DNA of 63,420 bases, counting the filler, from Craspedostauros australis (taxonomy: Eukaryota): NCBI GenBank assembly GCA_030167865.1. It is 12 parts of 12 records of this genome, joined end to end, with 100 filler letters (N's around TTAATTAATTAA, not from the genome) between each part and the next. Parts side by side here need not be neighbours in the genome. Positions count along the whole stretch, not along the records: positions 14,506 to 21,886 come from JALAGF010006689.1; 11 more parts are not named here. One strand, 5' to 3'. The notes beneath the pieces are model-generated. The model saw nothing but the letters and a program-made list of their open reading frames with translations. It did not search any database and was not told the DNA's origin. A program made the translations under genes and the position numbers. The stretch's first letter is position 1, and every line of letters begins with the position of its first letter. Shown here one piece after another: positions 3,719 through 61,585 of the stretch.

Positions 3719-4394
3719 TGTGCACAGGAGGCAGGTCATGATGCGAAGGTCTCGGCCCGCTTGGATCGAGACCAGTAATAGAGCTAAACTAGCAGTTAGG
3801 CTAAGGAAGGATTTCCTGGAACACATGACTCGTTTTCCCACGAATCGATCTGAACCACGTTTCGGACATAACCATGTTTGGAGCAGGCACAAGTCTTCGA
3901 AGAAACTCTTTGAAATCCAGGACTCATGGAAAAAGGGTCCCAATGACTGTGTCATCGGAACCCCTCCCCACCGAAAACTTGATGCCGATACAAGACTGCT
4001 GGATCCACGGTACAGTTCCACGTGGGAATACATGCAAGATGACCTTCGCCCAGCTTCCAACTTGATGGAGGGAAACTTTCCCCTGGTACTAGGGCTACGC
4101 AAACCCTACGCCCTTTTCTGACAGCAACCCAACAAAAGGGCCCCCTCCTGTGGTACTTGGGCTACGCAAACCCTACAACCCTTTTCCAGGGCAACCCACA
4201 CAGGGTGTCACACGAACAAGAATAATTGCACTAATCTCATAATCCGCACGTTTCTTCACCATCTACCAGTATTCTAANNNNNNNNNNNNNNNNNNNNNNN
4301 NNNNNNNNNNNNNNNNNNNNNNNNNNNNNNNNNNNNNNNNNNNNNNNNNNNNNNNNNNNNNNNAGACAACAGCCATTACGTTTGGGCTCTATTA
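3716..4394 (+). mobile_element. Putative 5' LTR of a retrotransposon (contains N gap)
   Basis: Begins where the ankyrin repeat is truncated and ends immediately before a tRNA-complementary PBS and a long ORF. Contains a duplicated TGGTACTWGGGCTACGCAAACCCTAC motif at about 4084 and 4151. Confidence 0.6.
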
Positions 4395-4408
4395 GATTAA
4401 CAGTCGCA
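4395..4408 (+). promoter_or_regulatory. Primer-binding site complementary to tRNA-Asn(GUU) anticodon arm
   Basis: GATTAACAGTCGCA. Its reverse complement TGCGA-CTGTTAA-TC reads as a 5' stem strand, a 7-nt loop with anticodon GTT and the first two pairing bases. Confidence 0.75.
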
Positions 4409-5959: not shown

Positions 5960-7954
5960 CCTCAAGTCAGGGCGATAGTATGCGATGAGTTGATCGCATT
6001 TGTCAACTCCAAGCATCCAATGATTGTAGTCGTCAATCATCTTCGGGATTCGGATGTGAGCAGAGTACTTGCTCCCCCAGACCATCTCCAAGTGCCCTGC
6101 ATTCACCTTGTTCTTTCTTGGCTTGTGGCGATTGCAAAGGACTGACTCGTTCCCATGGTGCACCGTACTGACCATCAACACCACATTGTTGTCAATCCAC
6201 CTGGTCACCACGTACTGATTGTTCTCGATCCAGACATAGAGCGAGTTGAAGCGCATGTCATCGACCTCCTTCACCTCTGTGCTGGGGAAGCCGTTCCTCC
6301 TCCTTGCAGTGCCAACAACTCCGATGCCCATCTCTCTTGACTTNGCCATGACCGTCTTGGTTGTGAAGAGGTTGTCCATTGCAACGACATGGTGATTCGA
6401 TGGGACCAATGTCTTCATGAGTTCCTCCACAGTGTTGTTGATCTTTGTTGTAGTATCCAGGCGTCCTGCAGGCAGTACATGATATCCAAATCCAGTCTTC
6501 GAACAGCACAAAGCATAGAATTTGTACCCCTCTTTGATGGGTTTCTGCTTCATCCGAGTGGTCTGCCTGGACCTGCCCTTGAATCTCACCATCATCTCAT
6601 CNNNNNNNNNNNNNNNNNNNNNNTTGATGCAGATACTCTTCGACACCTGGTTGACGTGGTCAAGCAGTGGTTGGATCTTGTGATACCAGCTTCTGTTGCT
6701 GTCAACAATCGGTGTAGGAGGAATGTGGGGCTGCGTGTACAGGGTTTGGTTGCTGCCTGTGGATGCAGAGAGGCTCGAAGTTGCAGATCGAATTGAGGGC
6801 GAGCTGCTGATGGTTGCACTTGTGAGAGAATCGTATCGGCTCTGGACGAGATCGTCTTCGCTGTCACTGACATCCTCGTCATCTGAGTCAGTGGCCTTCT
6901 TTGTGNCAGCAGNAATTGTGCCCCTCACAGCTGTGAAGTGAATGTGGTTCCACACAACTTCGTATCTTGCCCGTGTCATGTACTTTGTCAGCAAGTGGGA
7001 TGGTACGCCAATGGAAGGGGCACGCCAATAATCTCGCTTGGCCGGTGCCTTGAAGACTCCCATGTAGTAGTAGATTGCAAGGAAGAGGTAGATCTCCTTC
7101 ACTGAAACGAAGCTGGCCGTGGATCCACTGTTGAAGATATGGTTGTTGGTGTGGACTTGAATGGATTCAATGAGTTGCCGTGAGAAGTAAACCTCCAGGA
7201 TGGTATCAACTGATGGGTTGACACCTCCAACTGACCGGAAGAGTGGNGNGTGGGAACTGATGGGAAGTGGTGCATAGGCAACATTTTTGTCGGCTCCATG
7301 CACAGGAATGGTTGTGCCATCAGCACCAGTTGCATTGTCATTTGCAATTCCGTTGTTGTCCATGATTGTGCCATTTGTAGCAGTTGCTCTGTCAGTAGCC
7401 ATGGCAGCACCAATGAAAGTGGTGTGATCTGCACCCATTGATCCATCATTGCTGGGTGTGCCATCGTTGCTGGGCGTGCCATTGTTGCTTGGTGTGCCAT
7501 CGTGGCTGGGCATGCCATCGTGGCTGGGCATGCCATCGTGGCTGGGCGTGCCATCGTGGCTGGGCGTGCCATCATTGGTGTCATTGGCTGCGATTGTGCC
7601 GCTTCTCTCATGATGGCTTTTTTGCCTCAACGCAAGTTTGCGTTTGAGGCGGTTGAGGATGCGACTGCTGCGCCTGTTGCTTTCGATTCTGCTTGCGGTG
7701 CTGCTGATGGTGGTGGTACCAGCCACGCTGATGCAGGCACTGTTGCCATTGCATACTCCCTTGCTGCTCACAGTTGGTGCTCCTGCAGAGCGGTTTCCTG
7801 TCGCTCCATTAGTAGCATGAAGCAATTCTTTCCGATTGCCATTGAGGAATACCACAAAGGGTTCGGCACAATTGTAGCTTGCCGCGCCAATTGGGGGAGG
7901 CTTGGATGCTTTGACGTGCTTGGATGTGGGAGAGGACGGAGATGATGTGGGCAT
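5960..7954 (-). CDS. piggyBac-family transposase (3' end lost at scaffold edge)
   Basis: Catalytic motifs DEMMVRFKGR, AMDNLFT and YNHWMLGVDKCDQ, plus KPIKEGYKFYALC and MTRARYE. The frame is open from MPTSS at 7954. Confidence 0.93.
7443..7575. repeat. 18-bp coding minisatellite (about 7 copies, DG[TM]PS[HN])
   Basis: Tandem CCATCGTGGCTGGGCRTG units in the transposase N-terminus. Confidence 0.9.
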
Positions 7955-8627
7955 GGCCGCAGGTGGACGAGATCTGCTGTGCTTGTGTCGTGATGGGCGA
8001 TCGATGATGTGGCATCGTTGGAATTGTGATTTCAATTTTGTGATCAACAATCGTGACGATCTCTTCGACGGTGAGAAGAAACAATCAAGGAGATTGAGCA
8101 CAACGAAGAATNNNNNNNNNNNNNNNNNNNNNNNNNNNNNNNNNNGAAGCCATGTGCTGGGAGGCATCCATGGAGCTGTATGAACACGCATGCCAAGTGA
8201 TGCATGCGAAAACGGCGATCGAGTTGAGAGACGTGAGCGATGTGAGCACCGAAAAAATCGTTGATGTGTCGCGAAAATCAGCGATGATGGCCTCGCTGAT
8301 GAGTTTTCCCGTCAGTCCCGTCGCTGAAAAAACGATTCACGAGTACTTCGGAGGCCGATGGCGACCCGACCGCAGTAAGAAGACCCCTGATTCAGGAAGA
8401 TCAGAAGAAGCGCCAACTCCCAAGGATTCCGTTGGTACANNNNNNNNNNNNNNNNNNNNNNNNNNNNNNNNNNNNNNNNNNNNNNNNNNNNNNNNNNNNN
8501 NNNNNNNNNNNNNNNNNNNNNNNNNNNNNNNNNNNNNNGTAAAAGTTGCGGTCAAAAACGGAATGGGGTGAGAATGAAATTTATATTGGATCGAAGTAAT
8601 CCCCTAGGTCACGAAGGGATACTTCAT

Positions 8628-11011
8628 CACCTTCCATGGTATATACCCCAATGGTCTTTGCAGACATGGACTCTACACGAGCTGCAGATCCGCTTGACCC
8701 TCTTGGGAGTGTTTTCTTCTAGGCCAGTAATTTTTGTGGCCTTCAAGTAGCAGCAATATTGGCAAAGTCATTGCTTTCTATCGTTGTCAATTTTCTGTCC
8801 ATGGTCTTTATACACACCCATGAACCTATCCTCGCTCAACACTGGTTGGGTATTGTTCATCCCTGTCCTTGTTCTTATCTCCTTTGGGATTCTCCTTGCC
8901 CTCCTTGTGCCACAGACTTTGCAGGTCCTCGCTTTCCACACCAGTGCTTCCACCAATGCCAAGCCATATGATTTGTGATCCATTCAATCCTCCTCCTCCA
9001 CAAGGCGACTGTGCGCGATCCATGAGTTCACCCTCAGTATGTCAAGTAGGTGAAACATGATTGGCATCCATACCCTTCAACACCCCAGATTTGGTTGATA
9101 GTATGCAATAAGCTGATCACACCAATCCACCCCTCCCATCCAATGATTGTAGTCATTGATCATTCTTGGGATCCTGTTTGCAGCATTCCAGTCATCACCC
9201 CAGACAGTNNNNNNNNNNNNNNNNNNNNNNNNNNNNNNNNNNNNNNNNNNNNNNNNNNATGATTGTAGTCATTGATCATTCTTGGGATCCTGTTTGCAGC
9301 ATTCCAGTCATCACCCCAGACAGTCTTCAGATGGTTCTTGTTCGTTGTGGTCTGCTGTGGTCGATGTCGATTCTTTGTGACTGCCTCGTTTGCATAATGG
9401 ACTGTACTCACCATGGGCACCACATTGTTATCCACCCATCAAGTAATGACACACTTGTCACTCTCTGTCCAGATGTACAGAGTTGAAGCGATCATCTTCG
9501 ATGTCCTTCATTTCCTTGGGAGGGAATCCACAACGATACCTTGCAGTTCCACAATGCCCACTCCCATCTCCCTCAACTTCTCAATGACAGTCTTTGTAGT
9601 GAATAGATTGTCCATGGCNACAACATGCTTGTCAACAGGATTGAGTTTGGCAAGCAGCTCTGCGACAGTGTTGTTGATCCTGGTGGTTTTGTCCAGGCAC
9701 CCCGATGGCAGCACATGGAACATGAACCCCGAGGCTGAGCAGCAAAGTGAATAGAATTTGTAGCCTTCCTTGATTGGCTTCTGCTGCATGCAATGCATTT
9801 GTGCAGATCTTCCCTTGAATTGAACCATCATCTCATCTATGGCGCAAGCATAGTCAGGTTTCAGACACAGCCGCTTCGACACACTGTTGGTGTGGTTGAG
9901 AAGGGGCTGAACCTTGCCATACCACAACCGATCGGTCTGGAGCACTGGATGATACTTGGCGGATTGTTTCTGCTGTGATTGTGTGGATGCTCTTGCCTCC
10001 CTGCTTGGACTGTGAGGGCTACCAGCATGATGCTCCTCAGCTTCTGGTGGCAACCCTTCTGACACTCCTGATACATTCAGTTCCCAAGCTGAAACAAAGT
10101 CCATGGGGGTTCATGTCATCCTCAGCTTCTGGTGGTTCAGCTGCAGTCTCCACCGACAATTCAGACATTTTGTTCAAGGTTGGCAATGCAATGAAGTGCA
10201 TAGGCTTCCATACCATTTCATATCTTGATCTGGACATGTGTGTCATGAGTAGATGCGTTGGAACAGAGATTGAGGCAGCTCTCCAGTAGTTAATTGTTGC
10301 TGGAGCTCAGAAGAATTCCATTTAGTAGTACATGGCAAAGAAGATGTACAGCTCAGGGACGGTGATGGCAGTTGCCATCAATTTGGTGTTGCAAAGATGG
10401 CTGTTGGTGTAGAATTGGATCTTCTCCAGTAGTGAAACTGGAAAGAAGATTTCCAGGATAGTGTCACTGTTCATTTCCACATTGTGGATGGGCTGGACGT
10501 GCAGTTGTGTGCACTCACAGGTAGTGGCACATACTGAAGTGCTGGCTTTGTCTCATGTTGATGTTGAGATGCAGATGCAGCCCCTTGGGAAGCAGATGCA
10601 GCAGATGCATTGTCATCTGCGCTTCTATCAATGGTTGATTGCAACAGAGATGGGCTGGCAAACTTGGGTGGGCTGCTTGCTGATGCTTGATCCGAACAGA
10701 GCTGGACTGGCACTGAATGAAGGATCTCTCCTGGCTGAGGCAAAGTGCCTTGCCATTGATGATTGATCCATGTGGCGAATAGTTGGCTTGATCCATGTTG
10801 AGCAGTTGCATTCGATGCTCCTGTTGCTCGACCTGGAGGAAAGTGCTGTGCATCGTTGGCTCATGGAATCGGTGTGGTCAGATGGAGAAGTCTGCTGGGG
10901 TGGATTTGATGAGCTGTTGTAGGAAGACCACACATCCCTGTTGACACTACCTCATAGATTGGTGGGGCTGTTGGGTGGACCACTCTCCAAGAAATCACAG
11001 TAGGTGGGCAT
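8628..11011 (-). pseudogene. Degenerate second piggyBac transposase with C-terminal Cys-rich domain
   Basis: IDEMMVQFKGR, KPIKEGYKFYSLCC, AMDNLFT and DNNVVPMVSTVH lie in separate frames. The terminal CQYC...CSSCRVHVCKDHWGIYH domain is at about 8630-8765. Multiple stops and frameshifts. Confidence 0.9.
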
Positions 11012-11160: not shown

Positions 11161-14100
11161 ATGAGCGAGGAAGAGGAATTGAGAGACATCCCTCTGTCCA
11201 ACCTGACTATCAAGCCAGAAGAAGGTGCGAGTGAGACTCCACCACGAGAAGAGAAGGAAGTAGCAGCGGCTACTGTCCTATCAGGCGAAGACGCAAGCGC
11301 GATCGACGAGACCGAAGAGGAACGGTCTGCAAGGCAACATCGCGAGAAGGAGAGGATCCTCAAGGCGATCAAGCAAGAGGAGACTGGTGTGACGNNNNNN
11401 NNNNNNNNNNNNNNNNNNNNNNNNNNNNNNNNNNNNNNNNNNNNNNNNNNNNNNNNNNNNNNNNNNNNNNNNNNNNNNNNNNNNNNNNNNNNNNNNNNNN
11501 NNNNNNNNNNNNNNNNNNNGGAAATCAAGGGCGCGAGCGCACCAACAACGAAACAACGAATCAACATGGCGACATCAGCCAACATGAACAAGCGACGTAT
11601 CAAGGCGCCGATGTTCAGTGGTGAACAGGAAGACTACAGCGCATGGGAGTCCCAAGCGAAAGCATACGCTCGTGCACAGAAGACGAGAGACGTGATGTTG
11701 GGCAAAACCAAAGTGCCAACAGTGAGCGAGATCGCGGCAGCCGCCAGTGAAGCCAAGGAAGCGATGGAGGAGATCTACGAGCTGGGATGCGACTGCTTCA
11801 GCGATCTGATCCTCATGATGGATGCAGAGAAAGGAAAGGGCAAGCAGGCCATCCAGTACATCAACCAATGCATCTCCGACGATTATCCCGAAGGAGATCC
11901 ACACGCAGCGTGGAACGTTCTCGCAGAGAAGTTTCGACCATCCGACGCTGCGACGAAAATCAAACTCAAGCGCCAATTCAACAACGAAAAGATGAAGAGA
12001 GACTCGGACCCCGACATCTACATCACGCGACTCGAGAGTCTACGATCGCGTCTCCACGATGTCAAGTACGAGATCACAGACGAAGAGATGATCATGCAAA
12101 TCCTCAGCACGGTGAGCAATGAATACAAAACTCACATCGTGAACTTCCAACACCAACTCACGTTCAATCCGGAACTGATTACCATCAACACGATCAGAGG
12201 AGTACTTCGCACTGCATACGCCACTCATCAAGGAGGCAAGGCGTACGTCGACGACTTCCAAGACAGTAACACGAAGAGCAACGACACTGGCTTCACGAGC
12301 ACCGGTAAATTCAAGGGTACTTGTCACAACTGTGGTGTGTATGGTCACAGATCCGCCGATTGCCCAGAACGCAAGAAATCGAACAACAAGAAAAACAACA
12401 ACAACAAGATGAACGGAAAGCGCAACAACTACCGCAACAAGGGAAGCGGCTTCAACGGCAAGTGCAACTATTGCGGCATCTTCGGACATCGCGAGGCAGA
12501 GTGCCGAAAGAAGAAGTTCAACGAAAAGAAGAAGGCCGACGAGCAGGTCAACGCAGCAACGGAAGGACACGACAAGAGCGGGCACGAGATGGTACTCTCG
12601 GCAAAGGACATGCCGCTCTGCATGTTGGTGTCCAACGACTACATCGAAGACTCCTTCTTCGATAACTTTGAGTGCGTCGGAAGTGACGACGAAGTGCAGG
12701 ACGATGAGATCGTCCCGGAGTGGCTCAGCGAGGAGCCAATCATCCACGAGGTGGATCCAAGACGCGAAGTGAGCTACGAATGCTGCTTCAACGCGCACGA
12801 CCTGATCGGTCCATACAGCGACGCAGCCGAGATGGACAGCGAGGCCAACGATAGCGACATCGAAGAGGCAATGAGCGAAGACAACGAAGACGCCGACGAG
12901 AACGGCTCAGACGAAGACGCCGACGAGGACGGNNNNNNNNNNNNNNNNNNNNNNNNNNNNNNNNNNNNNNNNNNNNNNNNNNCGAGGCGCCGCCTCCCGC
13001 AGCAATGCGAAACGAGAGAACGGGCATCTTCGATGAAGAGGACAGCGACGAAGCTGAGGACCGTCCAAGCGATGCATTCAATCCCTACGAAGCTGTCGTC
13101 TACCCAATTCGAATCCAATTCCCACTGGAGCCGAATCCCAGAAGAGTCGACGACATCTACCGACTCCAGACCTTCCCAGAACCAACGGTCACTGCAAAAC
13201 GAATGCAGAAGCAGCTCATCTACGACGCGGTCCTAACAGCTGCATTACCGATGTTCCCAGGGTTCGTGAACGAACCATTGCGATACATTTGGGTGAGCAT
13301 GGTAAGCACCATCTTATCCGATAACTTCAAATCGATTGAAGAGATCCTCGCAAACGCAGCCATCCTCAACCGACTACTGCAAGCAAACGAAGAGGAGGAA
13401 CTCTCCAAACTGGACTTGCACTACGTGCTCGGAGGGTGCATGCAGGTGCTCCTGCGCGAGCGACCACGCGTCACACCGTATGACACGGTCACCGGAGTTC
13501 ATTGAAACAGCACAGTACCAGCGCACTTCGCTGAACTACCAAGCGATGACGAAACGGATGAGAACCACAATCCATACAACAAAGATGGAGTGCATGAAGA
13601 TGAAGAGGCAGACAGCCTCATGGATGAGATGGCCACAGCAGCCGTGGAGCAGCTCCACAAGCTAAGCACTCGATACAAGGACAAGGTCAACAAGGACACC
13701 TGGCTCGCCGACAGCGGAGCTTCGTGTCACATCGTCAATTCGGACGCCGCTCTCTTCAACGTGCGGCACATCAAGTCATTCGTCCAAGTGGGAGACAGCA
13801 CAAAGCTGGACTCTCCCAAAATGGGATCCATTCGCTTGAAAGTCAAGCAACGAGACAACACTGGCCACATCATCCGGCTCAACGATGTGAAGTACACACC
13901 GAAAATGGTGGTGAACCTTTTCTCCACAAACAAGGCTCTGTACAACGGTTACCAGCTTGGTAACAACGGCATTCTAATGGACATCATCAACGGATCCAGA
14001 ACGAAGATCGTATTCGACCAAGTCTTCCCCACAGCCAACGGATTCATCACAGGAGTGCAGATGCATCCCATCATGCCAACGAACGACGACAAGGCTTGCA

Positions 14101-14405
14101 CAGCCATCATCAAGAATCCATCCAAGGAGATCAGCGCGGTGAACTTGCATCGAATGCTCGGCCACGCGCCACTCGAAACCATGAAGCGGACAGCCGCCCA
14201 ATACGGATGGAAGATTATCGGCGAGATGCCGGTATGTCGCGACTGCGTGATCGCAAATGCGAGAGTAAAGAACATTCCGAAGGCAACGATTCCAAGAGCA
14301 ACTCGCCGCGGCGAACGTCTGTTCATTGACATTAGTTACACTAAACACATAAGCTTCGGAGATAAACGCTACTGGACCCTGATCGTGGACGACTGCACGG
14401 ATCAC
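11161..14405 (+). mobile_element. Ty1/copia gag-pol fragment, family A (Gag, two CCHC knuckles, extra module, protease, integrase start)
   Basis: FSGEQEDYSAW; CHNCGVYGHRSADC and CNYCGIFGHREAEC; WLADSGASCH; HRMLGH...CRDC; RLFIDI...LIVDD. In-frame TGA at 13503 where sister copies have Arg. Confidence 0.95.
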
Positions 14406-14505: not shown

Positions 14506-14675
14506 GCTGTGCGAAATGGGAATACCAGTGGACGGCCCAAGCTGGCTCTTTGGTGACAACCAGAGCGTAGTCACATCCTCCACCATCCCTACCAGTGTAC
14601 TATCCAAGAGACACAACGCACTGGCCTACCACCGAGTCCGATCGGCCATCGCCGCTGGGACGATGTACTTCATCA
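14506..14675 (+). mobile_element. Ty1/copia RNase H C-terminal fragment
   Basis: MGIPVDGPSWLFGDNQSVV...LSKRHNALAYHRVR. Confidence 0.9.
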
Positions 14676-15956
14676 ANNNNNNNNNNNNNNNNNNNNNNNN
14701 NNNNNNNNNNNNNNNNNNNNNNNNNNNNNNNNNNNNNNNNNNNNNNNNNNNNNNNNNNNNNNNNNNNNNNNNNNNNNNNNNNNNNNNNNNNNNNNNNNNN
14801 NNNNNNNNNNNNNNNNNNNNNNNNNNNNNNNNNNNNNNNNNNNNNNNNNNNNNNNNNNNNNNNNNNNNNNNNNNNNNNNNNGTGCTGAAACGATGCTTTA
14901 CTCCGACACATGATTTTCGGCATAAGAGGGACACACTAGAGAGAACATCAGAGATTCGGTCTGGCCATTGCCCGGCAAACATGTGATGTCCAATCCGACC
15001 TGATATGACCCACTTGAGTGAACGAAGGTGCAGTCGCGCCTAGTCGTGACTCAGATTTTCGTATAATTTAAAATGACATATAAAAACAAAATCTAGACCA
15101 CCGTGCGATCTTATCCATATAAAAATGGCCTTCATCCGACCTTTGCTTCAAAAGTTATACGCCCCTATCTACCACGCACAACGCCGTGTTATTTTTCCTC
15201 CTCAAATTTCGGAAATGGGTCTTGGTTGTTCGTGACTTANTATTTTCGATGGTGTCTTTTCGGTTAATTACGGTTATATTTTGGCGANATGCNCCTCGTC
15301 AGCNTTTCTTNCNATCGCAACGTCACTATCTTGATGTTTTCATGATGGGCATTTCATTGCGNTATTCTCTGGTTTCTGCGCTTGGTTGTCTTGATTCTCC
15401 TGCAGCTTCTTGTGCATGCGAATTGACTTGTTCGTCACATGCTACGTGGTCCTCGTCGTAATCCCGTTTGTCAACAACCCTCCATTGGTATCATCCATGC
15501 CATCGACAAAAAAATAATCAGGGCGATCTATCCAATTCAACTATCATCTGCGTTTTTCAACTTGTTCATGAAGATCTACATCAACCATTCCATTTTTGAC
15601 GACGGCTACCCCAGACTGCACACAAAGGTACTACTCCTATTTCATGACGGACATGGCATTATCCGCCATGCATTCGATGGCCACAATGATGCTGACAGCG
15701 ACGGTGGTGTTGATTGGGGCAGCATTGACATAGACAGCCATGATGATGCCCAGGATAGCATTGTCAGTGGCTATGGTCGCCGCCATGGCAACAAAGGTGG
15801 TGGTGCTACCCACAGCGATGCTGTTGTCAAGGACGATGCTGGTGATGGCAACAAAGATGAGGATGGGGAAGCAACCTGAATGATTCCGTCACAGAAGGCA
15901 ATGGTGATGGCAATGAAGGTGGTGTTGGCAAGAGAAGCAATGGTGATGATGGCAGG

Positions 15957-16118
15957 TGACAGCTTTCTCTGTACTTTTTACCTCTTTACAAATCATATGA
16001 GTCAAAATACTGGTCGGAGATTGTCCTCGAACAACTCACAATAAAAAAACAAGAGCTCCGACCAGGGCACGCAACAACGGGCCAATACGTCTCCAGGAGT
16101 TACTTGTGCACTTTGACA
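15957..16118 (+). repeat. 5' LTR (162 bp)
   Basis: Direct repeat of 21631-21793 with TG...CA ends. Confidence 0.95.
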
Positions 16119-16132
16119 GATTAAGAGTCATG
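16119..16132 (+). promoter_or_regulatory. Primer-binding site complementary to tRNA-Lys(CUU) anticodon arm
   Basis: GATTAAGAGTCATG directly abuts the LTR. Its reverse complement CATGA-CTCTTAA-TC is an anticodon arm with CTT. Confidence 0.8.
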
Positions 16133-19100
16133 GTTTACCAACAAGAATATCACCTTTGCAACATCAACCACCATGGCAAGACCAATCAACAACCAAGCTT
16201 TGACAGCCATAATCAAGGAACTTGCTGACCTCGATGACAAAGAAATGGAGTTCATCAACAAGCAACTCAGAAGGATCGAACGCGCCATCAAGAGTCCAGA
16301 CAAAAACACCATCCAAACGCTGGCTCTCTCACCAACACTCACCTCGATCAACATTGAGAACATCCTTCACATCTTCGCTTTTGTGAAAGAACGGCAAATC
16401 GACCAAGCAACCGATTGGGCGGCCATCAACAAGTTCACTACAACGACCGGGTATGAGGTACCAACCATCAAGACTCCTGTCGCCAGCAAGGCAACCCAAA
16501 TGCGATTGGAACTCGTGACGAAGGAAGCCGCCAATCGTGAACTCGCCAAGGCAACGAGCTGTGAGGTTGTGGTACACTCACCAAGGCGCCCATTGGAAGT
16601 ACACCGATCGCCATCAATGCCAACCAGATGGAAGTATGACAAGTCGCCCTGCTAGAGGCGGAGCCATTCAGCGGACTCAACATCGAATGGTACCAGTGGA
16701 AGACCAACTTCCACCGCCAGCTGGTCACAACCAGATACGCAGACTATATGCAAAAGACACGCCAGGCCCACTCCTGCAAGAACGTCGACACCCAGTTCTA
16801 CGCAGTGCTCAACTTGAAAACGTGCAAAGGACACACTAACTACATGGTCCTCTCGGAAAGAGACAGCGGTCACGCAGCCTTCCAGGCCCTCATCCGCACA
16901 TACGAATCCACTGAGAACAGGGCCGACATTGTGGCAACAGAGGAAGGCAAACTGTCCAAACTCGTCTACAATGGATCTGGACCGTTCAGCACGTTCGTCA
17001 ATGACTTCTCCATATCTGTTCAGCCAATAGAAGACAACAGAAAGGCAATGCGCGACAAGCAGAAGATTGCAAGAGTCTTCTGCAACATTCATGATGAGCG
17101 ATTCACCAGTACGGTCTCTCGCCTCCAAGAGACGGACGAGTCCTTCAATTGGGTCTGCAAAACTCTCATGAAGCACAACAAGGTCCTCTCCAACGCGGAG
17201 ATCGACAGATCTCCACGGCGCAATCAACGCGCGCACCAGAAGGACGGNNNNNNNNNNNNNNNNNNNNNNNNNNNNNNNNNNNNNNNNNNNNNNNNNNNNN
17301 NNNNNNNNNNNNNNNNNNNNNNNNNNNNNNNNNNNNNNNNNNNNNNNNNNNNNNNNNNNNNNNNNNNNNNNNNNNNNNNNNNNNNNNNNNNNNNNNNNNN
17401 NNNNNNNNNNNNNNNNNNNNNNNNNNNNNNNNNNNNNNNNNNNNNNNNNNNNNNNNNNNNNNNNNNNNNNNNNNNNNNNNNNNNNNNNNNNNNNNNNNNN
17501 GGCAACAAGACCGATCGAACCAAGAAGTACAGACCATGTGACAACAGCTCCTGAAAACCAACAACAGGCGCTTCGCGCCGGCAGTTGGAGGTCATCACAT
17601 GCATCAAGGACCAAGACAGTGTGGACTTGATGCACAAAGCCGCGGAGAGCGGGCCAGGGCATACAACCCCGGATACGCTACGAGAGTCGCGTCCAAGAAG
17701 CGCTGACTCGCATATAGAGCACACAATTCGACGGGCAAGAGTAACAAATAGTAGGCATGGCTATATCATTCTAGACTCAGGCACGGACGGTGACATTGTT
17801 CATGAGTCTGGATGGGTGGTAGCCCAAAATCACCAGCAGCAGTTCCACCCCGAGGGGCGACAGTGGACTTGCAGATCGAGATGTTTCCAATGGTTGACGT
17901 GGTGGCAGCGTACAAGCCGCCAGAAGGTGGAGTGATCTTCATCAAGGCACATTATGTGGCTCTCGACAAGCATCCATGGCAGATGGAGTCGCTGTTCAAT
18001 ACACACCACATGCGCACGTCCGACATCAGCGTCTGCGATTGGCTTCGACAACACGATGGGCAGCAACGGATAACGTCTGGCGACATCAGCATCCCGCTGG
18101 CCAATCACGACAGCAATACCCTGTGCATCCCAATTCGTAAACCGACAGCTTGCGAGCTAACTCAAACTGAGAATATTACTATATGCGACAGACACAGACG
18201 CCTTCGGAGATCCCACACCAGTGGTGACTTCAACGAGGTCTTCCGGCATCTCCCACAACAGGTGGTCGAGAAAACGAAAGCAGCATCGACCCAACTGGCC
18301 GATACTCCCATCGATGCGGAGTCAAGACTCATCCCAAGGCAGTACTGTGCGCAGCAAGCGGGCGCGCTACAGCCACACCAAATCAAGGGAAGAGTGGAAA
18401 CTGATCCATTCTTCTCCATGGTCCCATCGATTTGACACCACAAGTGCTTCCAGCTCTTTGCACACAGCGAATCTAAATTCATCTGGGCAAAGCCGCTCTG
18501 ACAAGAGGCGATGGCGCCAGGGGCGCTCACCGATTTCATTGTGCAGGTCAGGGCACCTGACCTACTCTTCTTGGACTACTCACAGGTCCAAGCCATCAAA
18601 GAATGGAAGGCTGTGACAATGTGGTACATGATCGAGCACTCCTTCACTGCTCCCATGAATCAGAATCAGAACCGAGCGGAGCGGCCGATCGGCGACATCA
18701 AGCGACATGCATACAAATTGCTTTGGGCGGAGTCCATGCCACTCACCTTCTGGTGCTACGCGGTACAACATGCCATCGATGTATGGAACTACATGGCAAA
18801 GGAGAGCATCCAACGGAAGAATTCCATCGAACTGCTCCACAGGAACACTCTGGACATCTTCATGTTCAGGTTCACGTTCTTTCAACAGGTCTGGTATTTC
18901 GAGCCAATGACAAAGTTTCCACATCACCCATTCAAACCAGGATACTTCTTGGGAATCGCATGGGACCATGGAGACCCTTTCACATACAACATATGGTTGC
19001 CACGGGGCGACGACGAAACCAATGGCACTGCCCTGGTACAGAACATTGTGGAACCACGAATCGTGGAAGACGCAAGCGCTCCGCAAATCACCGACGAGGA

Positions 19101-21630
19101 AGTTCAGCGCATCGCACGCCTCGATCTCATACACACTACTACCAGAGGCAACTTGGGGCAACGAGCACGCGCCAAGACGATGCCAGCACAGCTCGCCCGA
19201 CAGGTCCGTGAGGCCATCGACGCGATTCCCGTGCGGTCGGTGGCGGCTGCTCGCATTCCTGAGGAGGGACCACTGGAGGTCAGGGGCGTCGTGGTCAACG
19301 AAAATGCTATTCCGCATGACAACTGATGGTTCGGTCAGCAGAACGTCATCATTGATGACAACGACAACCACAACAGCAGGCCTACGAGCATGATATCCTA
19401 TGGCAAAGGGGAAGACAAGCTCTCAACTGCGGACATCTCGAGAGAATCTGATGACTATGAAGCAGTGAGGATTCCAGATCCTCCCCAGCAGCGGATTCAG
19501 GGGCGTATCGACACTCTGGCTGAGCGCGAGCATGATTAGATGTTCCAAAATCAGATCGCAAAAGACAATACGAGCGAACCAGAAATTACATCCATAGCAG
19601 GCCACTCATTCCGAGACTGACATCTCCATCTCAATGTGAAATGGGACAACAATGAAACTCAATAGTTCCGACACAATATCCTGAGGGCAGACCATCCCGA
19701 GCTCGTGGCGCGATACATCATCGCCAACGAGCCAAAACGGCACGACAGGCACAATCGACAGTCAACAACAATACTAAAACGGGCAAAGCACGCTGTTCGT
19801 GCGATACACAGACGCATGCGACGAATCGAGCGCACGCACATCTTCACAGTTGACAACAATGACAGCATTGCCATCCTGAGGCGCATACGACCAGGAAAGA
19901 AGAAGCCGAACAAGGACTTATTCGCTACAGTATTCCAATACAGTGTAGAAGTGCCATGCAACATGCGACACGCACTCCAACGTGACGAAGCCAATGGCAA
20001 CACATTGTGGAAGCATGCAGCAAAGAAAGAGATCGACGCTCTGATCGACCTCAATTGCTTTGAATTCCATCCATCCACTCACCGACCTTCATCGTACTAC
20101 CAGAGCACCAAGCTCTGGCTCATCTTCGCTGGGAAACAGGATCTGTGGCGCAAGGGGTGGCTGGTAGCCGGTGGTCACCTCATCGAACTCGCTGACAATA
20201 TCAGAGTATACTCATCCACGATCAATTCAACCAGTGCACGGATACTCAATGTCATCGCGGACGCAAACAAGCTGAAGCAACTCTGCGACAACATGGGGAA
20301 TGCAGTTGTCAATGCCTACACCAACGAGAAGATGTACGCGAGGGCAGGAAAAGAGTTCGATCACAGAGAGGGTCAGACAATCGTACTCAGGCAGGCGTTG
20401 TATGGACTCCGATCGAGCACGCAAAGATTCCATGCTCACTTCGCAAATACACTCTCATCCATGGGGTTCTCTCCATCACGGCATGACCAGGACGTGTGGA
20501 TCAAGTGGAGGGACAACACTGGGTATGACTATATATGCATGCATGTCGATGACTTCAAGATTGTGGCAAATGAACCGGACCAATACATGAAGGCCATCCA
20601 GCAAGTCTACACCATCAAAGACATAGGACCACCCAAATACTATCTGGGCAATGACGATTCCAGGAATGCGAAAGACAAATGGAGCGTTGGATGTGACAAA
20701 TACATCGCAAACGCGATGGATAAAGTCAAGAAGCAGCATGCAACACTCCATGACCAGCATGTGTCCATGTGGAACAAGGACCATCCGGAAACAGATGACT
20801 CCGAACTACTCACACCAAACGAACACCAACAGTTCCAGCAGCTCATCGGCATGCTGAACTGGGTCGTTCAACTTGGACGTTTCAATGTCGCCTTTGCAAC
20901 TTCTTCACTCTCTTAATTCACTGCATCATCTCGGAAAGGGCATCTAGCAAGAGCACTCAAGGTATGGGGCTATCTCAAGAGCAAGTCCACACTCAGAACG
21001 CAAATTGACTCCAGACCCATGATATTCGACAACTTCAACTCGACGCCGTCCAACCCAGAATTGGTGGTGCAAATGAAGGAAGAATACCCTGAGGCACAGG
21101 AGGACGTCGACGACCGGTCACCGAAGCCAATCTATCCAGAGCCGCCGATGTATGCATTCGTCGATGCTGACCATGCGCACGATCTTGTCACATGCCAATC
21201 AAACACCGGGATCCTCCTTTTCCTCGGCAGGACGCCTGTGTACTTCTCGAGCAAGCGGCAGACATCAGTCACAACGTCTACATACGGAGTAGAATTCAAC
21301 GCGATGCAATCAGTGACGGAAGAAATCATTGCACTCCGATATGCACTCCGATCACCGAGAGTCCGCGTCCAATCACCAACGGTCACATTCTGCGACAACG
21401 ATGTGGTGATCTTGAAAACGACGATCGCAGACAACCTATTGCAAAAGAAGCATGTGGCAATATCATTTCACCGAGTCCGTGAGGCTGTGGGAGCTGGGAC
21501 ACTGGTTCCAGTCCACGTCCCATCGGCTCAGAACTTCGCTGACATCCTCACCAAGGCATTGGTGAGGCCAACACTAACACTTCTTGCCACAACCCTGTTC
21601 TACGGGGGTCCACCTTGAGATCAAGGGGCG

Positions 21631-21793
21631 TGACAGCTTTCTCTGTACCTTTTACCTCTCTACGAATCATATTAGTCAAAATACTGGTTGGGGGATTGTC
21701 TTCGGACAACTCACAATAAAAGAACAAGAGCTCCAATCAGGGCACACAACAACGGGCAAATACGTCTTCAGTAGATACTTGTGCACTTTGACA
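21631..21793 (+). repeat. 3' LTR (163 bp)
   Basis: Direct repeat of the 5' LTR with about 16 substitutions and 1 indel by manual count. Confidence 0.95.
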
Positions 21794-21986
21794 GCAGGGA
21801 TCGCAATGGTGACAAGGCAACAGGTGATGGCGACGGCGATGGAAGGGATGGCGATCATCTTGAAAGCCCTGCGATTTGGAGACATCNNNNNNNNNNNNNN
21901 NNNNNNNNNNNNNNNNNNNNNNNNNNNNNNTTAATTAATTAANNNNNNNNNNNNNNNNNNNNNNNNNNNNNNNNNNNNNNNNNNNN

Positions 21987-24900
21987 TTGGACCAAGCCAC
22001 TCCGACGGGAGGCGATGGCGCCAGGGGCGCTGACCGACTTCATCCTCAACGTTGGAGCACCAGACCTACTTATTTCCGACAATTCACAAGTGCAATCGGG
22101 CAAGGCATGGAAGGCGGTAACATCCAAGCACATGATCAAGCATTCGTTCACAACGCCAATGAACCAGAATCAGAACCGAGCGGAACGCGCTATCGGAGAC
22201 ATCAAGCGGCATGCGTATCAACTCATTTGGGCGGCATCTGCGCCACTCGAATTCTGGTGCTACGCTGTTCAGCACGCTGTCGACGTTTGGAACTTCACGG
22301 CCAAGGCAAGCATCCAATGGAAGACGCCGATCGAACTTGCTCGGGGCAACACACCTGACATCTCTATGTTTCGTTTCACTTTCTTCCAGCCGGTGTGGTT
22401 CTTCGAACCGATGACGAAGTTCCCGGCTCATCCCTTCAAGCCAGGATATTTCCTGGGAATCGCATGGGATCATGGCGATCCATTTACATACCACATCTGG
22501 TCGCCGAAGGCCGACGACATCAAGAAAGGCACAGCACTCGTCCGGAATATCGTGAAACCGCGAATTTTGGAGAATGCAGAGGTGCCACGGATCACTGACG
22601 AGGAAATACAACGGATCGCTCGACTCGACCTCATACACTACAAGACCAGGGGCGCTTCGGGGGACAGGGCGCGCACCAAGACGATGCCAGCTGAGCTCGC
22701 TCGACAGGTCCGCGAGGCCATCGACGCGATTGCTGTGCGGTCAGGGGCGGCGGCTTGCATTCCGGAACCTGGACCCGAACGGGTCAGGGGCGTCGAGGTC
22801 GACGCAAATACTACTCCATCGGAGGATCAATGGTTTGGGCGGCCGAACATCGTACCAGACGACGATGGCATGCGCGGACAGAACGCCGCTGGCATGATAT
22901 CGGATGACGACGACGACGGCGACGACATTCCAGACGATGACATCTCAGTGGAGTCCGACGGCTCGGCGGCGGAACCTATGCCGGATCCACCGGAGCAGCG
23001 GGCTCAGGGGCGTCAAAGCTCTCTTGCAGAGCGCGAACACGATGAAATGTTCCAGAATCAGGTCGACAAGGTCGATCCAAATGAACCAGACATCACCAGC
23101 ATCATCGGACACAGCTTCCGAGACGGACATCTACACCTCCACGCGAGGTGGGCAAGCGATGACACACAATGGTTTCGATATGATATCCTACGGGCGGATC
23201 ATCCAGAGCTCGTGGCTCGCTACATTGTCGCGAACAAGCCTACTCGACACGGACGGCACAATCGTCAATCGCAAACGATGTTGAAATGGGCAACCCATGC
23301 ACTACGAGCGATCAGACGGCGCATCCAACGAATAGAGCGCACGCATCAATTCTCGATCGACGGCAACGACAACGTGACAATCATACGACGGGTCCGGCCA
23401 GGAAAGAAGAAGCAGAAGAAAGACTTCTTCGCAACTGTATTTCAATACGGAGTCGAGGTTCCACGCAACATGAAACACGCTTTGCAACTCGATCAGGCCA
23501 ACAACAACGACATGTGGAAGGCAGCAGCCAAGAAGGAGATCGATGCACTCATCGACCTCGACTGCTTCGAATTCCATCCGTCAACACATCGACCATCATC
23601 CGAATACCAGAGCACAAAGCTCAGACTCATCTTCGCAGTCAAGCAGGACCTGAGACGCAAGGCACGACTCGTGGCGGGAGGACACCTCATCGAGCTGGCA
23701 GATAACATNCGTGTCTACTCATCGACAGTCAAGTCGACCAGCGTGAGAATACTCGACGTCATNGCCGACGCGAACAAACTGGACCAGCTCTGCGGCGATG
23801 TCGGCAACGCATTCGTCAACGCATATACCAACGAGAAGATATACGCAACAGCAGGCAAGGAATTCGATCACCGGGAAGGCCAGACAATCGTGCTCAAGAA
23901 AGCATTGTACGGGCTCAGATCCAGCGCACAACGATTCCACGCACACTTTGCGAATACGCTATCCTCGATGGGATTCAAGCCATCACGACATGACCAGGAC
24001 GTCTGGATCAGACTTCGTGACGAGTCCGGATATGACTACATCTGCACACATGTGGACGACTTCAAGATCGTGGCAAAGGACCCACAGAAATATATGAAGT
24101 CCATNNNNNNNNNNNNNNNNNNNNNNNNNATCGGACCTCCCAAGTACTACCTTGGGAACGACTATTCCAGGAATGCCAAGGGCAAATGGAGCGTTGGATG
24201 TGACAAGTACATCGCCAACGCACTGGACAAAGTCGAGCGCCAGCACGGGCAGCTACACAACCAGCATGTTCCTATGCGGAACAAGGATCATCCCGAAACG
24301 GACGATACCGAACTACTAACACCTGACGAGCAACAGCAGTTCCAGCAGCTCATTGGCATGCTGAACTGGGTCGTTCAGCTCGGACGTTTCGACGTCGCAT
24401 TTGCAACTTCTTCACTTTCACGTTTCACTGCATCACCANNNNNNNNNNNNNNNNNNNNNNNNNNNNNNNNNNNNNNNNNNNNNNNNNNGGCAAGGAATTC
24501 GATCACCGGGAAGGCCAGACAATTGTGCTCAAGAAAGCATTGTACGGGCTCAGATCCAGTGCACAACGATTCCACGCACACTTTGCGAACACACTATCCT
24601 CGATGGGATTCAAGCCATCACGACATGACCAGGACGTCTGGATCAGACTTCGCGACGAGTCCGGATATGACTACATCTGCACACATGTGGACGACTTCAA
24701 GATCGTGGCAAAGGACCCACAGAAATATATGAAGTCCATNNNNNNNNNNNNNNNNNNNNNNNNNNNNNNNNNNNNNNNNNNNNNNNNNNNNNNNNNNNNN
24801 NNNNNNNNNNNNNNNNNNNNNNNNNNNNNNNNNNNNNNNNNNNNNNNNNNNNNNNNNCTGGACAAAGTCGAGCGCCAACACGGGCAGCTACACAACCAGC

Positions 24901-25217
24901 ACGTTCCTATGCGGAACAAGGATCATCCAGAGACGGACGATACCGAACTACTAACACCTGACGAGCAACAGCAGTTCCAGCAGCTCATCGGCATGCTGAA
25001 CTGGGTCGTTCAGCTCGGACGTTTCGACGTCGCATTTGCAACTTCTTCACTTTCACGTTTCACTGCATCACCACGCAAGGGACACCTCGTGCGAGCGCTC
25101 AAGATATGGGGCTATCTCAAGCACAAGGCCACTCTCCGCACACAGATCGACTCCAAGCCAATGATATTCGACAACTTCCCATCGACTCCATCCAATCCGA
25201 AATTGGTGGCGCAAATG
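21987..25217 (+). mobile_element. Ty1/copia pol fragment, better-preserved relative of family B (integrase, chromo-like module, RT)
   Basis: Open frame with ISDNS, NQNRAER, KARLVAGGH, GDVGNAFV, KKALYGLRSS and YICTHVDDF. Colinear with about 18480-21075. Part of RT is repeated across an N gap. Confidence 0.95.
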
Positions 25218-26899: not shown

Positions 26900-29224
26900 T
26901 CAGTCAAAGTTATACACAGCACCCTCGAAAAATCCTCCGTGCAACCCAGCATTCGGCAGGAACTCCGGCAAGCGCAGGCGGCAGACTGGACCCCTCTCCA
27001 ACGCACCCTCTCCCTCAACGTCCATGATCGCGATGTCTGTTGTTCCCGTCGACACCTTCGATACCGTGGTCATCACGTAGCACGCATCCTCCTTGTCCGG
27101 ATCTGCGCCCTGCTTGCGGACCATGGTCGGCTCGCCAACGAACTCGTCTGAATCGAACGCCCATGCCTCGTACTTGCCAGGTGTGGTGGCGTCGATCTTC
27201 GTGATGGCGCTCTGGGCACCCCACATTGGCTTGGACAGGAAGGATGGGGTCTTCTTGCGAGACGCCGTGGTGTAGGTGTATCGGTGCGGTCTGGATGAGA
27301 TGTGCTTTGGGACGACGGGGAACTCTGGACACTGATCGCAAAGGATGATGGGATCCTGCTGGAGTTGCTTGGCGTCTAGGTTGACGGTGTACCGAGCCAT
27401 GTCTCCGACTTCGACGTCCGGTGCTTGGAGTGTCTCCCACACTGGCTTGTTGCTGTCGGTGGATGAATGGATGGCGAAATCGAAGTCCTTGTCTTCGCTG
27501 GTCCGGATCATGTCGAAGGTGAGGTGGCGATCGCCGTCATCGCCGTCAGCTTCGTAGGCATTTCCGAAGTGGAAGTTGAAGCAGAACGGGAGCTCGATGC
27601 GGGTGATCCTGTCATCGGCAAGGGCGTCGATGCAGATGTCGCCATCCTTGTCGGCCTTCGCACCTTCGTGGGCGGAGGCGGACATCAACGATCGTGGAAC
27701 GACGAGGAGTGTGGTTTCGCTGTCTTGAGGGATGGTGAGGGAGTCGCTGATAGCACCGAATCCAAGCAGCGCCTTCATGGTGCGGAGAGGATCGAGTGCT
27801 GCCTTCACCCAGGTGAAGACGACGTAGTTCTCGGTCAAGATGAAGTCATGCATCATCGCTCTTCCGGGCAGCGTGATGCATACTCTTGGGTCGCTGTCGT
27901 CAGCGGCGTTGTCGTCTGCTGCCTTTGGTTGGTAGGTGTTGGCATCGTACTCGTAGAGATGAATCTTGTTCTCATCCTTGCCCATGCCGGGCAATGTGGT
28001 GCCGAATGTGACGTACGTATTCTTGATGGGATCGTAGCGGTAGTGACCGGAGATGCTGTCATCCTCGTTCAAGATACCACCCATATCGACCTCATCCTCT
28101 TGCTTCATGTCGAGCGTGACAGGATCGAGAGCGTATGGCTTGCCACCTTCCCACAATGCGTAGAGAGTGTTGGTTCCGGGTGCGAGGACGCAGTTGGTGT
28201 TGGCCACGTTGGCGATGTCCATGTTGCCGATGTTGGCAAGGAAGCCGCCGCTCTTCTGAGTTCCGAAGATGCCGCGCATGCTGACAGTGCCAGTGCGCTG
28301 GTCTTGGTTGAACTTCTGAGTCTTGACGAACTTGTTGCGGAATGTGATGCGAGACTGTTGATGATCAGTCTGTATCTGCTCCTCGTTGGTGTCATCACCG
28401 TTGCTGCTGTTGCTGTTGGGGTTGTTGCTGTTGCTGTTATTGGTTTTGTCGAATGTGACACCCATGATCATGCCATCACCATCGAATGGATGAGCCACAC
28501 GCTGTCCATCAGCGGCGGAAAATCGACCGGCACCATTACGGAACCACGTGCCTGATGGGAAGTCTTCTGGGAGATCGGCGGAGAGAGCGGCTTCGAGTGA
28601 TGCCGTATCCTGATCAGCAGCGGCCTTGTTGGTCGAAAGCCATGGCTTGCTGGATCCAGGCAGAGTGATCTTCGATGGATCGAAGAGGTTGGGGACGAGG
28701 TACTCATCCATCCATGATTTGGTGGAGTACCTCAACGCTCCCAGTGATTCCAGGGTTGGAGGTTGGAAGGTTCGTGGGAACAGCTGCTTGGCCATGGCTT
28801 GGACCATGGATGTCATCATGTTCCCGATGATGGCATGGATGTCGAATTCGCTTGACTTGTTGGATCGTGAGTTTAGGTCTGAATTGTCCGTGCCACCACT
28901 GTTGGGGGAAGCGACGAATTGGAGCGTGGTTGGTGTCGCAGTTTCTTGGCCGTTGACGAAGGAGTGTCGCCATGCCGCCATGTCGCAACCAACCTCGTTG
29001 ATCTCAGGTCGGTGGTTGAGGATGTTTGGAAGCTGCGATGCGTGGACGGCTGTTGCTGACTGTTGTTGCTCTGTGCCTGTGAATATCGATGGCATGGCCT
29101 CCATTGCTGTGTTCCCGTTGGCCCGAATTGGCATTCTCTGCGGGGTGCTGACTTGGAAAGCTGTACCAGTGGCAGCGAACACATGGAGGAGCGCAAGTGA
29201 TAATAGCGTTTGCGAGGTCATCAT
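26900..29224 (-). CDS. Carotenoid cleavage dioxygenase / RPE65-family protein, probably plastid-targeted
   Basis: GTWFRNG, HPFDGDGM, NVANT, ALWEGG, EFP and GEP motifs, and four Fe-ligand histidines (SGHY, MMHDF, FHFGNAYE, GLHG). Hydrophobic signal peptide followed by TA-FQV. Intact 774-aa frame. Confidence 0.93.
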   Translation of the reverse strand: MMTSQTLLSLALLHVFAATGTAFQVSTPQRMPIRANGNTAMEAMPSIFTGTEQQQSATAVHASQLPNILNHRPEINEVGCDMAAWRHSFVNGQETATPTTLQFVASPNSGGTDNSDLNSRSNKSSEFDIHAIIGNMMTSMVQAMAKQLFPRTFQPPTLESLGALRYSTKSWMDEYLVPNLFDPSKITLPGSSKPWLSTNKAAADQDTASLEAALSADLPEDFPSGTWFRNGAGRFSAADGQRVAHPFDGDGMIMGVTFDKTNNSNSNNPNSNSSNGDDTNEEQIQTDHQQSRITFRNKFVKTQKFNQDQRTGTVSMRGIFGTQKSGGFLANIGNMDIANVANTNCVLAPGTNTLYALWEGGKPYALDPVTLDMKQEDEVDMGGILNEDDSISGHYRYDPIKNTYVTFGTTLPGMGKDENKIHLYEYDANTYQPKAADDNAADDSDPRVCITLPGRAMMHDFILTENYVVFTWVKAALDPLRTMKALLGFGAISDSLTIPQDSETTLLVVPRSLMSASAHEGAKADKDGDICIDALADDRITRIELPFCFNFHFGNAYEADGDDGDRHLTFDMIRTSEDKDFDFAIHSSTDSNKPVWETLQAPDVEVGDMARYTVNLDAKQLQQDPIILCDQCPEFPVVPKHISSRPHRYTYTTASRKKTPSFLSKPMWGAQSAITKIDATTPGKYEAWAFDSDEFVGEPTMVRKQGADPDKEDACYVMTTVSKVSTGTTDIAIMDVEGEGALERGPVCRLRLPEFLPNAGLHGGFFEGAVYNFD

Positions 29225-30000
29225 GATTACCTTGTGATATTATAGGAGGAAAGCTGTTGTTAGCTGTGTGTGTGTGATGCAATCCAGCACTGGTTGTGGC
29301 GATTTGCTTTGGTTGGTGTGGGTGTGGGTGTTTGTCTTGTGTTGGTGATGATTTTATGAGAGGAGGGTGTTGCGAAATGTCGTGAAATGTTGTGAAATGG
29401 TTTGGAATGTTGGTGATGATTGTTCTTGTTGGCTCGTGTTTGAGCCACACGATTTTCGTGTTGAAACTGGTGGCGATACGTTGTCTGTGTTTTTACCTTG
29501 TATGGCCCCATTCAGCGAAGTCGAGTATTATTCTGCGGATTTGAGATACTGAAACGTGATATTTTTAGACATCAGTTTTTCGTGTTGTCCATTAGGGTTA
29601 GATATATTTAGCTAGCTTCTACGACACAAATACATGGCTGGCTTGTCCTCACCGTGGACGAGAATGGTGACATCATTGACGGTCGATGCCAGACTGAAAT
29701 GGTATCCAGCGGCCTCGATGGTGATGTTGTGAAAGGTTCGGTGTCACGTTCATTCCTTGCGTTGTCGATGGTTTGGCTCTGGTGTGCGTTACCTCCTTTG
29801 TGCGTGGAATGTCAAACAGCACGGTGTTGGTGGCGGCGTCCCTACACGTCCACTTCCACGTTCACGGCAATAGCAACACTTGCGAATATGACACAGCATA
29901 ATATTATATCATATAGTANNNNNNNNNNNNNNNNNNNNNNNNNNNNNNNNNNNNNNNNNNNNNNNNNNNNNNNNNNNNNNNNNNNNNNNNNNNNNNCAAA

Positions 30001-46334: not shown

Positions 46335-46596
46335 CGGCCTCCTCTTTAGGAGTCATGGCACTTGGCTTCTTGGCTTCTTCGTCGTCCTTCTTCTTGCCTT
46401 TCACAGGGAGGGAAGCAAAGGAGGGGACGAAAGGTTCTTCTTTCACAACCACATCACCCATGTCCTTGAGATACAAGTCTCCATAGCCCTTTCGATTGGC
46501 GCGGGCCAGGAACTTCGCACTCCAAGCTTTCCAGCTGGACCGCTTGCCGTCGAACATGATCATGTAACGATCAGTCTTACCTANGAAGGATGTCAT
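46335..46596 (-). CDS. Ty1/copia Gag N-terminus, family C (partial)
   Basis: FDGKRSSWKAWSAKFLARANRKGY, a typical copia Gag N-terminal motif, downstream of a leader and LTR. Confidence 0.85.
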
Positions 46597-46720
46597 GGTG
46601 ATGATGATGATGANAGGATGTTTGTTGCTGTGTTGATGGTGGTAGAAACGTAGGATTTCAATCGTAACGTTTCGAAACGTGTTGGAAATCCGGGGTTATA
46701 GTTAGTACTAAGTCCTAATC

Positions 46721-61485: not shown

Positions 61486-61585
61486 NNNNNNNNNNNNNNN
61501 NNNNNNNNNNNNNNNNNNNNNNNNNNNNNTTAATTAATTAANNNNNNNNNNNNNNNNNNNNNNNNNNNNNNNNNNNNNNNNNNNN

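Follow-up and report, generated by a model that had tools for sequence, protein, structure and literature searches.

A probable half-tRNA primer-binding site for tRNA-Lys(CUU) in a decayed copia-type retrotransposon of Craspedostauros australis

The question raised by this locus is whether the 14 bases that directly follow an LTR in Craspedostauros australis are a primer-binding site (PBS) and, if so, which part of which tRNA they would bind. The window, that is, the whole stretch of 63,420 nucleotides that was analysed, is a pseudo-scaffold in which 12 pieces are joined by eleven N44-TTAATTAATTAA-N44 linkers, with TTAATTAATTAA providing stop codons in six of six frames. As the window consists of joined pieces, features that stand on either side of a linker are possibly not neighbours in the genome. 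The target element lies entirely within a single piece (14506-21886). The block at 16119-16132 is very probably the minus-strand PBS of an old, defective 5.8-kb LTR retrotransposon of the Ty1/copia type, which would have been primed in the Hemivirus style via tRNA-Lys(CUU).

The element and its primer-binding site

The target element is bounded by two LTRs and a short duplication (Table 1). In self-BLAST, the LTR pair spans 15956-16119 and 21630-21794, with 89.7% identity over 165 nt. An earlier note, made from the DNA alone, had placed the site against a rigorously defined LTR end; this is correct, as the second LTR copy and the GCAGG duplication together fix the junction. The spacer between the 5' LTR and GATTAAGAGTCATG is zero, so that the PBS begins at the first base past the LTR. 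The internal region encodes a copia-type RT (Pfam RVT_2, E 1.8e-09, about 19666-20916) and, N-terminal of it, a D(35)E integrase-like motif that is read from the consensus of the pol alignment, for which there are few database relatives. Pfam rve had no match in the window ORFs of the target and reached E 0.052 only, in the relative P0004. A gag or zinc-knuckle Pfam match was not found in 16125-17248 of the target, where the ORFs have weak similarity to the corresponding region of three relatives (L008, L011 and L012). A profile search of the structure bank with the pol alignment returned 0 matches. Because the LTRs are approximately 10% diverged and the reading frames are broken, the target is an old, dead copy of the Ty1/copia type.

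Table 1. Coordinates of the features discussed; positions are those of the window, except for the Ile-type sites, for which the loci of the relatives are given.
Feature	Position	Strand	Basis or status
Second half-tRNA PBS, GATTAACAGTCGCA, complement of tRNA-Asn(GUU) positions 27-40	4395..4408	+	arm matches
Target-site duplication, 5' copy, GCAGG	15952..15956	.	same 5 nt beside both LTRs
5' LTR, 162 nt, TG...CA	15957..16118	+	self-BLAST, alignment; ends set by duplication
PBS, GATTAAGAGTCATG, complement of tRNA-Lys(CUU) positions 27-40	16119..16132	+	adjoins LTR
Decayed internal region (leader, gag-like ORFs, frameshifted pol)	16133..21622	+	broken ORFs, RVT_2
N gap in the internal region of the target	17248-17500		
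Purine-rich tract, AAGGGGCG, candidate plus-strand primer site adjoining the 3' LTR	21623..21630	+	sequence reading; putative function
3' LTR, TG...CA	21631..21793	+	self-BLAST, alignment, flanks
Target-site duplication, 3' copy, GCAGG	21794..21798	.	same 5 nt beside both LTRs
Claimed third junction, GATTAGGACTTAGTAC	46705..46720	-	unsupported as half-tRNA PBS
Linker cores	5904, 11075, 14450, 21931, 25262, 35409, 46279, 49013, 54061, 58770, 61530		
Ile-type sites, GTTTATCAG(ACCCA), at the LTR/leader junction of relatives	L008, L011, L012, L025, L028, L029, L031, L034, L038, L041, L043, L044, L046, L047, L052, L054, L055, L061, L069, L071, L074, L077, L079, L080		

The PBS was proposed to match the tRNA-Lys(CUU) anticodon arm, and this is borne out: in tRNA-Lys(ctt) genes on viral contigs, which stand in here for the tRNA of the host, positions 27-40 are complementary to it at 14 of 14 bases. 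Within GATTAAGAGTCATG, the GA of bases 1-2 complements the TC of bases 10-11, as expected from the pairing of tRNA positions 39-40 with 31-30. The stem-closed reverse complement of GATTAAGAGTCATG matched 17 viral contigs. For six of these matches, ARAGORN calls a tRNA-Lys(ctt) in which the matched stretch is the anticodon arm, and two of the six lie in giant-virus MAGs; the other 11 are without a tRNA gene and belong mostly to one conserved phage coding stretch. Taken alone, the Lys-arm pattern is tRNA-unspecific. The phage coding stretch, which was matched by a 17-nt form of the pattern, is found in L081, L082, L084, L089, L091, L093, L094 and L096 with near-identical flanks.

Priming of the target can be envisaged as follows. 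The 14 bases at 16119-16132 would anneal to nucleotides 27-40 of the cytoplasmic tRNA-Lys(CUU), a span that takes in the whole seven-base anticodon loop, together with the complete 5' side of its stem and the first two bases on the 3' side. The primer would be a 5' fragment of this tRNA ending at C40 with a 3'-OH, which the RT of the element would extend into the adjoining U5/R to produce minus-strand strong-stop DNA. The host's own tRNA-Lys(CUU) presumably carries the matching arm, a cleaved fragment would have been the primer, and the target copy itself would at some time have been primed in this way. Counting against annealing, A37 of ANN-decoding tRNAs bears t6A, and base pairing through the loop should be weaker as a result. 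As for the cut, an RNase P-type cleavage was reportedly proposed for the copia primer by Kikuchi et al. in 1990.

The earlier note had gone further and linked priming to stress, with the primer being a stress-induced tRNA half released by anticodon nucleases, so that stress would be coupled to retrotransposition. This is very unlikely. Some diatom copia elements are stress-activated (PMC2806351), and nothing in the sequence itself speaks for such a coupling. Stress nucleases of the RNase A and T2 families cleave within open loops, and their products end in a 2',3'-cyclic phosphate (PMC6315542), whereas the PBS needs a fragment that ends at nucleotide 40, in the stem, with a free 3'-OH. The known nucleases, as described in that source, would thus give the wrong position and an end that is not extendable.

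Self-priming of the Tf1 kind would dispense with a tRNA altogether; here, the transcript folds back so that its 5' end meets the PBS and is then cut to form the primer. Self-priming exists in some copia lineages, the plant TAR lineage being the precedent (PMC6317226). In the target, however, the LTR contains no stretch longer than 5 nt that is complementary to the 30 nt beginning at 16119. For 500 shuffled LTRs the longest complement was 5 nt in 204, 6 nt in 198 and at least 7 nt in 89. A self-match of the PBS to the LTR, which had been named at the outset as evidence against a tRNA primer, is therefore no better than that of shuffled sequence, and self-priming of the target is extremely unlikely.

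Primer types among metagenomic relatives

The relatives of the target considered here are 80 metagenomic loci, the top-ranking ones among 329 that a profile search with the INT-RT region confirmed. A 14-nt half-tRNA block is present in 38 of the 80: 24 are of the Ile(IAU-type), nine Asn(GUU), two Lys(CUU), two Ser(GCU) and one elongator Met. In every type the block is 14 nt long (positions 27-40) and ends at tRNA position 40, while the flanks are unalignable. The idea that different elements use different tRNA arms is therefore supported, with five tRNAs among the relatives and all of the blocks ending at nucleotide 40. The cut site two bases 3' of the anticodon loop, which the earlier note took to be conserved, is likewise where all types end, but it is the nucleotide-40 rule and not new. 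ARAGORN found no tRNA genes in the 80 loci, and neither ARAGORN nor Rfam found any within the window.

Two of these loci, L040 and L059, carry the Lys type. In both, GATTAAGAGTCGTG stands immediately after the LTR end, with flanks that cannot be aligned, and the stem-closed arm for GATTAAGAGTCGTG is a tRNA-Lys(ctt) in three of three viral matches. PBS base 12 is A in the target and G in L040 and L059; the target site is a relic and could bear a substitution. In addition, a G directly 3' of the 14-nt PBS is common to all three Lys-type sites (window 16133; L040:126; L059:102), a sample of three sites only. Since position 26 is G or A in nine viral-contig tRNA-Lys(ctt) genes, and is thus unpaired with that G, its conservation is unexplained by pairing.

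Ile is the commonest primer type among the 80 relatives. GTTTATCAG occurs in 24 loci, on the coding strand in 24 cases and on the opposite strand in 0, and the exact 14-mer GTTTATCAGACCCA is found in 21 of the 24. The Ile-type site is complementary to the arm of a tRNA-Ile and places a C against position 34 (inosine); the arm is a tRNA-Ile in three of 15 viral matches, of which one (aat) is in a giant-virus MAG and the other two are gat. The remaining types are represented by GATTAACAGT-type sites in nine loci (Asn), GATTAGCAGT in two loci, one of which is doubtful (Ser), and GATTATGAGACTGA in one locus (elongator Met). The Ser arm is a tRNA-Ser(gct) in 22 of 47 viral matches. For the Met arm, a 15-nt pattern is a tRNA-Met(cat) in 27 of 111 viral matches, and a 19-nt pattern gave 0 viral matches.

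A strand bias is also seen with GATTANNAGTC: the 80 relatives have it 13 times on the coding strand vs once on the opposite strand, approximately 1.5 per strand being expected from length. Two of the 13, those of L012 and L044, are in or at the coding sequence of pol and were left out of the PBS count. The sole occurrence on the opposite strand, in L048, resembles the PBS of an oppositely oriented element. The same junction of an LTR end with an Asn-type PBS is found in opposite orientations relative to identical RTs at L048:561-571 (-) and L049:6583 (+), an arrangement suggestive of one family having inserted in nested or head-to-head fashion.

None of the 38 typed sites falls within the INT-RT match; 16 are 2.3-5.1 kb upstream of it and 22 are 1.3-3.3 kb downstream. 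The target's own PBS is 2.4 kb upstream of its INT-RT match. The 22 downstream sites, for which the PBS is assumed to be of the same family as the RT, are as expected from circular or tandem assembly of the element. The 42 untyped loci are mostly without the relevant region, and a relaxed anticodon-arm search of them revealed no further recurrent primer types. A recurrent candidate in L004 and L015 was rejected; it has no canonical loop fit and is probably within coding sequence.

Could the 14 bases after the LTR resemble an anticodon-arm complement by chance? The stretch is only 14 nt long, the comparison was made with tRNAs of viral contigs and not of the host, and, as described above, most of the viral matches to the arm pattern are no tRNA gene. 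Against this, two distant relatives with unalignable flanks have this block at the equivalent junction, and 36 further loci carry comparable 14-nt blocks that correspond to four other tRNAs, with the strand biases of 24 vs 0 and 13 vs 1. Furthermore, the site conforms to the internal rule that position 30 pairs with 40 and position 31 with 39. Coincidence is, on these grounds, very improbable.

The three Lys-type sites also bear on ordinary priming, in which the 3' CCA end of a full-length tRNA would bind at the TGG at 16131-16133, 12 nt past the LTR. The TGG at 16131 is common to all three. However, the sequence past it is wholly different among them, in contrast to the conserved 14-mer, and the TGG itself simply complements stem positions 26-28. 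No TGG stands at this place in the Asn, Ile, Ser and Met types, and a spacer of 12 nt between LTR and PBS would be unusual. CCA-end priming thus has very little probability.

Primer switching, ANN-decoding tRNAs and known systems

Mapping primer type on an RT tree, which the earlier note had proposed as a check, shows with the 80 metagenomic relatives that type tracks the tree and switches repeatedly. The RT-core tree holds 80 of 82 rows, as L022 and L072 were dropped (<180 aa), and was midpoint-rooted. PBS type changes eight times over 39 typed rows vs a shuffled mean of 14, and 0 of 200 shuffles were as low, a test that is inflated by kinship. The Ile type fills large clades, and the Lys type has at least two origins. 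The target falls in a 13-row clade (support 99/94) together with Asn (L006), Ser (L003) and Met (L002) types. Since there are eight changes vs 14 after shuffling and the types are mixed in the clade of the target, primer type is, on the tree, a lineage trait that switches repeatedly.

All of the half-tRNA types found here read ANN codons (Lys-CUU, Asn-GUU, Ser-GCU, Met-CAU and Ile-IAU), as do the published types (iMet, Arg-UCU, Ile and Lys). U36-A37-A38 and C40 are common to all types, here and in print, and every typed PBS, both in the window (4395 and 16119) and in the 38 loci, begins with G (C40). The primer has switched at least eight times in this radiation, always within the ANN set. A statement of the ANN-only pattern was not found in the literature searched. 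Mutational nearness may explain part of it, because the Lys and Asn arms are one base apart within positions 30-40.

A bolder explanation, tentative and in our judgement somewhat doubtful, is that half-tRNA priming at nucleotide 40 is open only to ANN-reading tRNAs, among which elements could hop by a few point changes in the 14-nt site. If this is true, the primer-making nuclease or the RT initiation complex would recognise a feature shared by these anticodon arms and not the identity of the tRNA. Candidate features would be the t6A37-type loop, as ANN-decoding tRNAs bear t6A37, and the G30-C40 pair. The ANN pattern is a testable clue, and would in that case give a concrete handle on the long-standing question of how half-tRNA primers are produced.

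Half-tRNA priming as such is well established. In the genus Hemivirus, cDNA is initiated from the 3'-OH of tRNA nucleotide 40 (PMC1181622), and according to the ICTV, half-tRNA priming separates Hemivirus from Pseudovirus (PMC8515867). As in Hemivirus-type elements (Drosophila copia, 1731, yeast Ty5 and Volvox Osser), the PBS of the target lies against the 5' LTR and has an anticodon stem-loop as its pairing partner; unlike theirs, which binds initiator tRNA-Met, it uses tRNA-Lys(CUU), and the likeness is one of priming. A Lys arm is also on record, as the PBS of the fungal copia element FunCo1, ATTAAGAGTCT, matches an internal tRNA-Lys region (PMC5445492). FunCo1, from filamentous ascomycetes, is likened to the target by its Lys anticodon-arm PBS alone and differs in its fungal host and in the last stem base of the motif, which is T in FunCo1 and A in the target. 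The target site is a real PBS, of an already known half-tRNA kind. The suggestion of an under-described system does not hold, as priming from nucleotide 40 defines Hemivirus (PMC1181622, PMC8515867) and the Lys arm is published (PMC5445492).

Other known systems differ from the target more widely. In plants, 1/2tRNA-Met and 1/2tRNA-Ile primers are reported for Ty1/copia only and as a lineage trait, with Bianca using Ile, and Osser, Bryco and Gymco-II using Met (PMC6317226). Unlike these lineages, with two reported tRNA species, the relatives of the target use five. The Bianca PBS has a C opposite position 34, where A34 is edited to inosine (PMC6317226), and the same C opposite inosine-34 is present in the 24 GTTTATCAGACCCA-type sites of the target's relatives. 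Candida elements have internal-region PBSs for tRNA-Arg(UCU) and iMet (PMC4139406); the C. albicans copia families (gamma/Tca2-like and zeta) differ from the target in their tRNAs and in having a yeast host. Tf1/Sushi elements share with the target an unconventional primer and a PBS beside the LTR, but their primer is their own transcript, whereas the target LTR is without a PBS complement beyond 5 nt. Diatom CoDi copia elements have LTRs of 153-844 bp (PMC2806351), with which the short LTR of the target is compatible, the likeness being one of LTR length alone. The main text of that paper mentions neither a tRNA nor a primer-binding site (PMC2806351).

Half-tRNA PBSs for Asn(GUU), Ser(GCU) and elongator Met were not found in the article main texts searched. 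Searches with the literal PBS strings returned unrelated primer matches only, among the matches listed. The annotation of the window is settled to the extent that the 16119 site is a genuine half-tRNA-type PBS of a dead copia element. The most useful by-product is the breadth of primer switching among its relatives, an unusually broad repertoire for one copia radiation, with five tRNA species all cut at position 40. In practical terms, PBS finders that are limited to tRNA 3' ends miss such sites and label the elements 'PBS-less'.

Other junctions and neighbouring features of the window

A second half-tRNA PBS lies at 4395, and as the earlier note had it, the 16119 site is in register with this Asn-type site, both being complementary to tRNA positions 27-40. 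The stem-closed arm of the 4395 site is tRNA-Asn(gtt) in at least 108 of the 119 viral matches listed; of the remaining matches among those listed, one is called tRNA-Tyr and 10 are without a call. In the window, GATTANNAGTC occurs twice vs 0.35 expected, and two or more occurrences were obtained in three of 100 shuffles. The element at 4395 is truncated by the end of its piece at 5859, and the LTR before the PBS is almost wholly masked by an N run (4278-4363). A second copy of this LTR was not found in the window, where the 22-mer preceding the PBS is unique.

A third junction had been claimed on the minus strand at 46720, where the element is likewise truncated by a piece end: the piece starts at 46335 and ends the element after approximately 390 nt. 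As a half-tRNA PBS this site was rejected. Self-BLAST of the window revealed no LTR pair for it, the rules of the anticodon arm are broken (position 32 would be G, and positions 30 and 40 would be unpaired), and its 16-mer is a tRNA in 0 of four viral-contig matches. The ORFs of the 46720 element, most of which are on a different piece, have no similarity to other elements, and in a related copy at 58 kb, aligned with it, the PBS region is lost in an N gap. Of the three junctions said to start with GATTA, those at 4395 and 16119 stand, while 46720 is unsupported as a PBS junction. Nor is GATTA a universal start, as the commonest type among the relatives starts with GTTTA.

Further mobile elements are present on other pieces. 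The copia element at 21988-25217, on a separate piece, has 74% DNA identity (self-BLAST) and 81% RT-core identity to the target. A second, conventional copia family is found at 11521-14405 (+) and 59071-63420, with Pfam matches to Retrotran_gag_2, zf-CCHC, Pol_BBD and rve; its copies are on several pieces with 80-96% identity, and its PBS is masked by N runs. Fragments of a piggyBac-like transposase lie on a separate piece at 5960-8110 (-) and 9511-10110 (-), with matches to Pfam DDE_Tnp_1_7 (E 3e-26, 1e-09 and 3.5e-13). Two host genes were also noted: a long ORF of ankyrin repeats, with a period of 108 nt, at 1817-3715 (+), and an ORF of the RPE65/carotenoid-oxygenase family (E 1.8e-81) at 26903-29239 (-).
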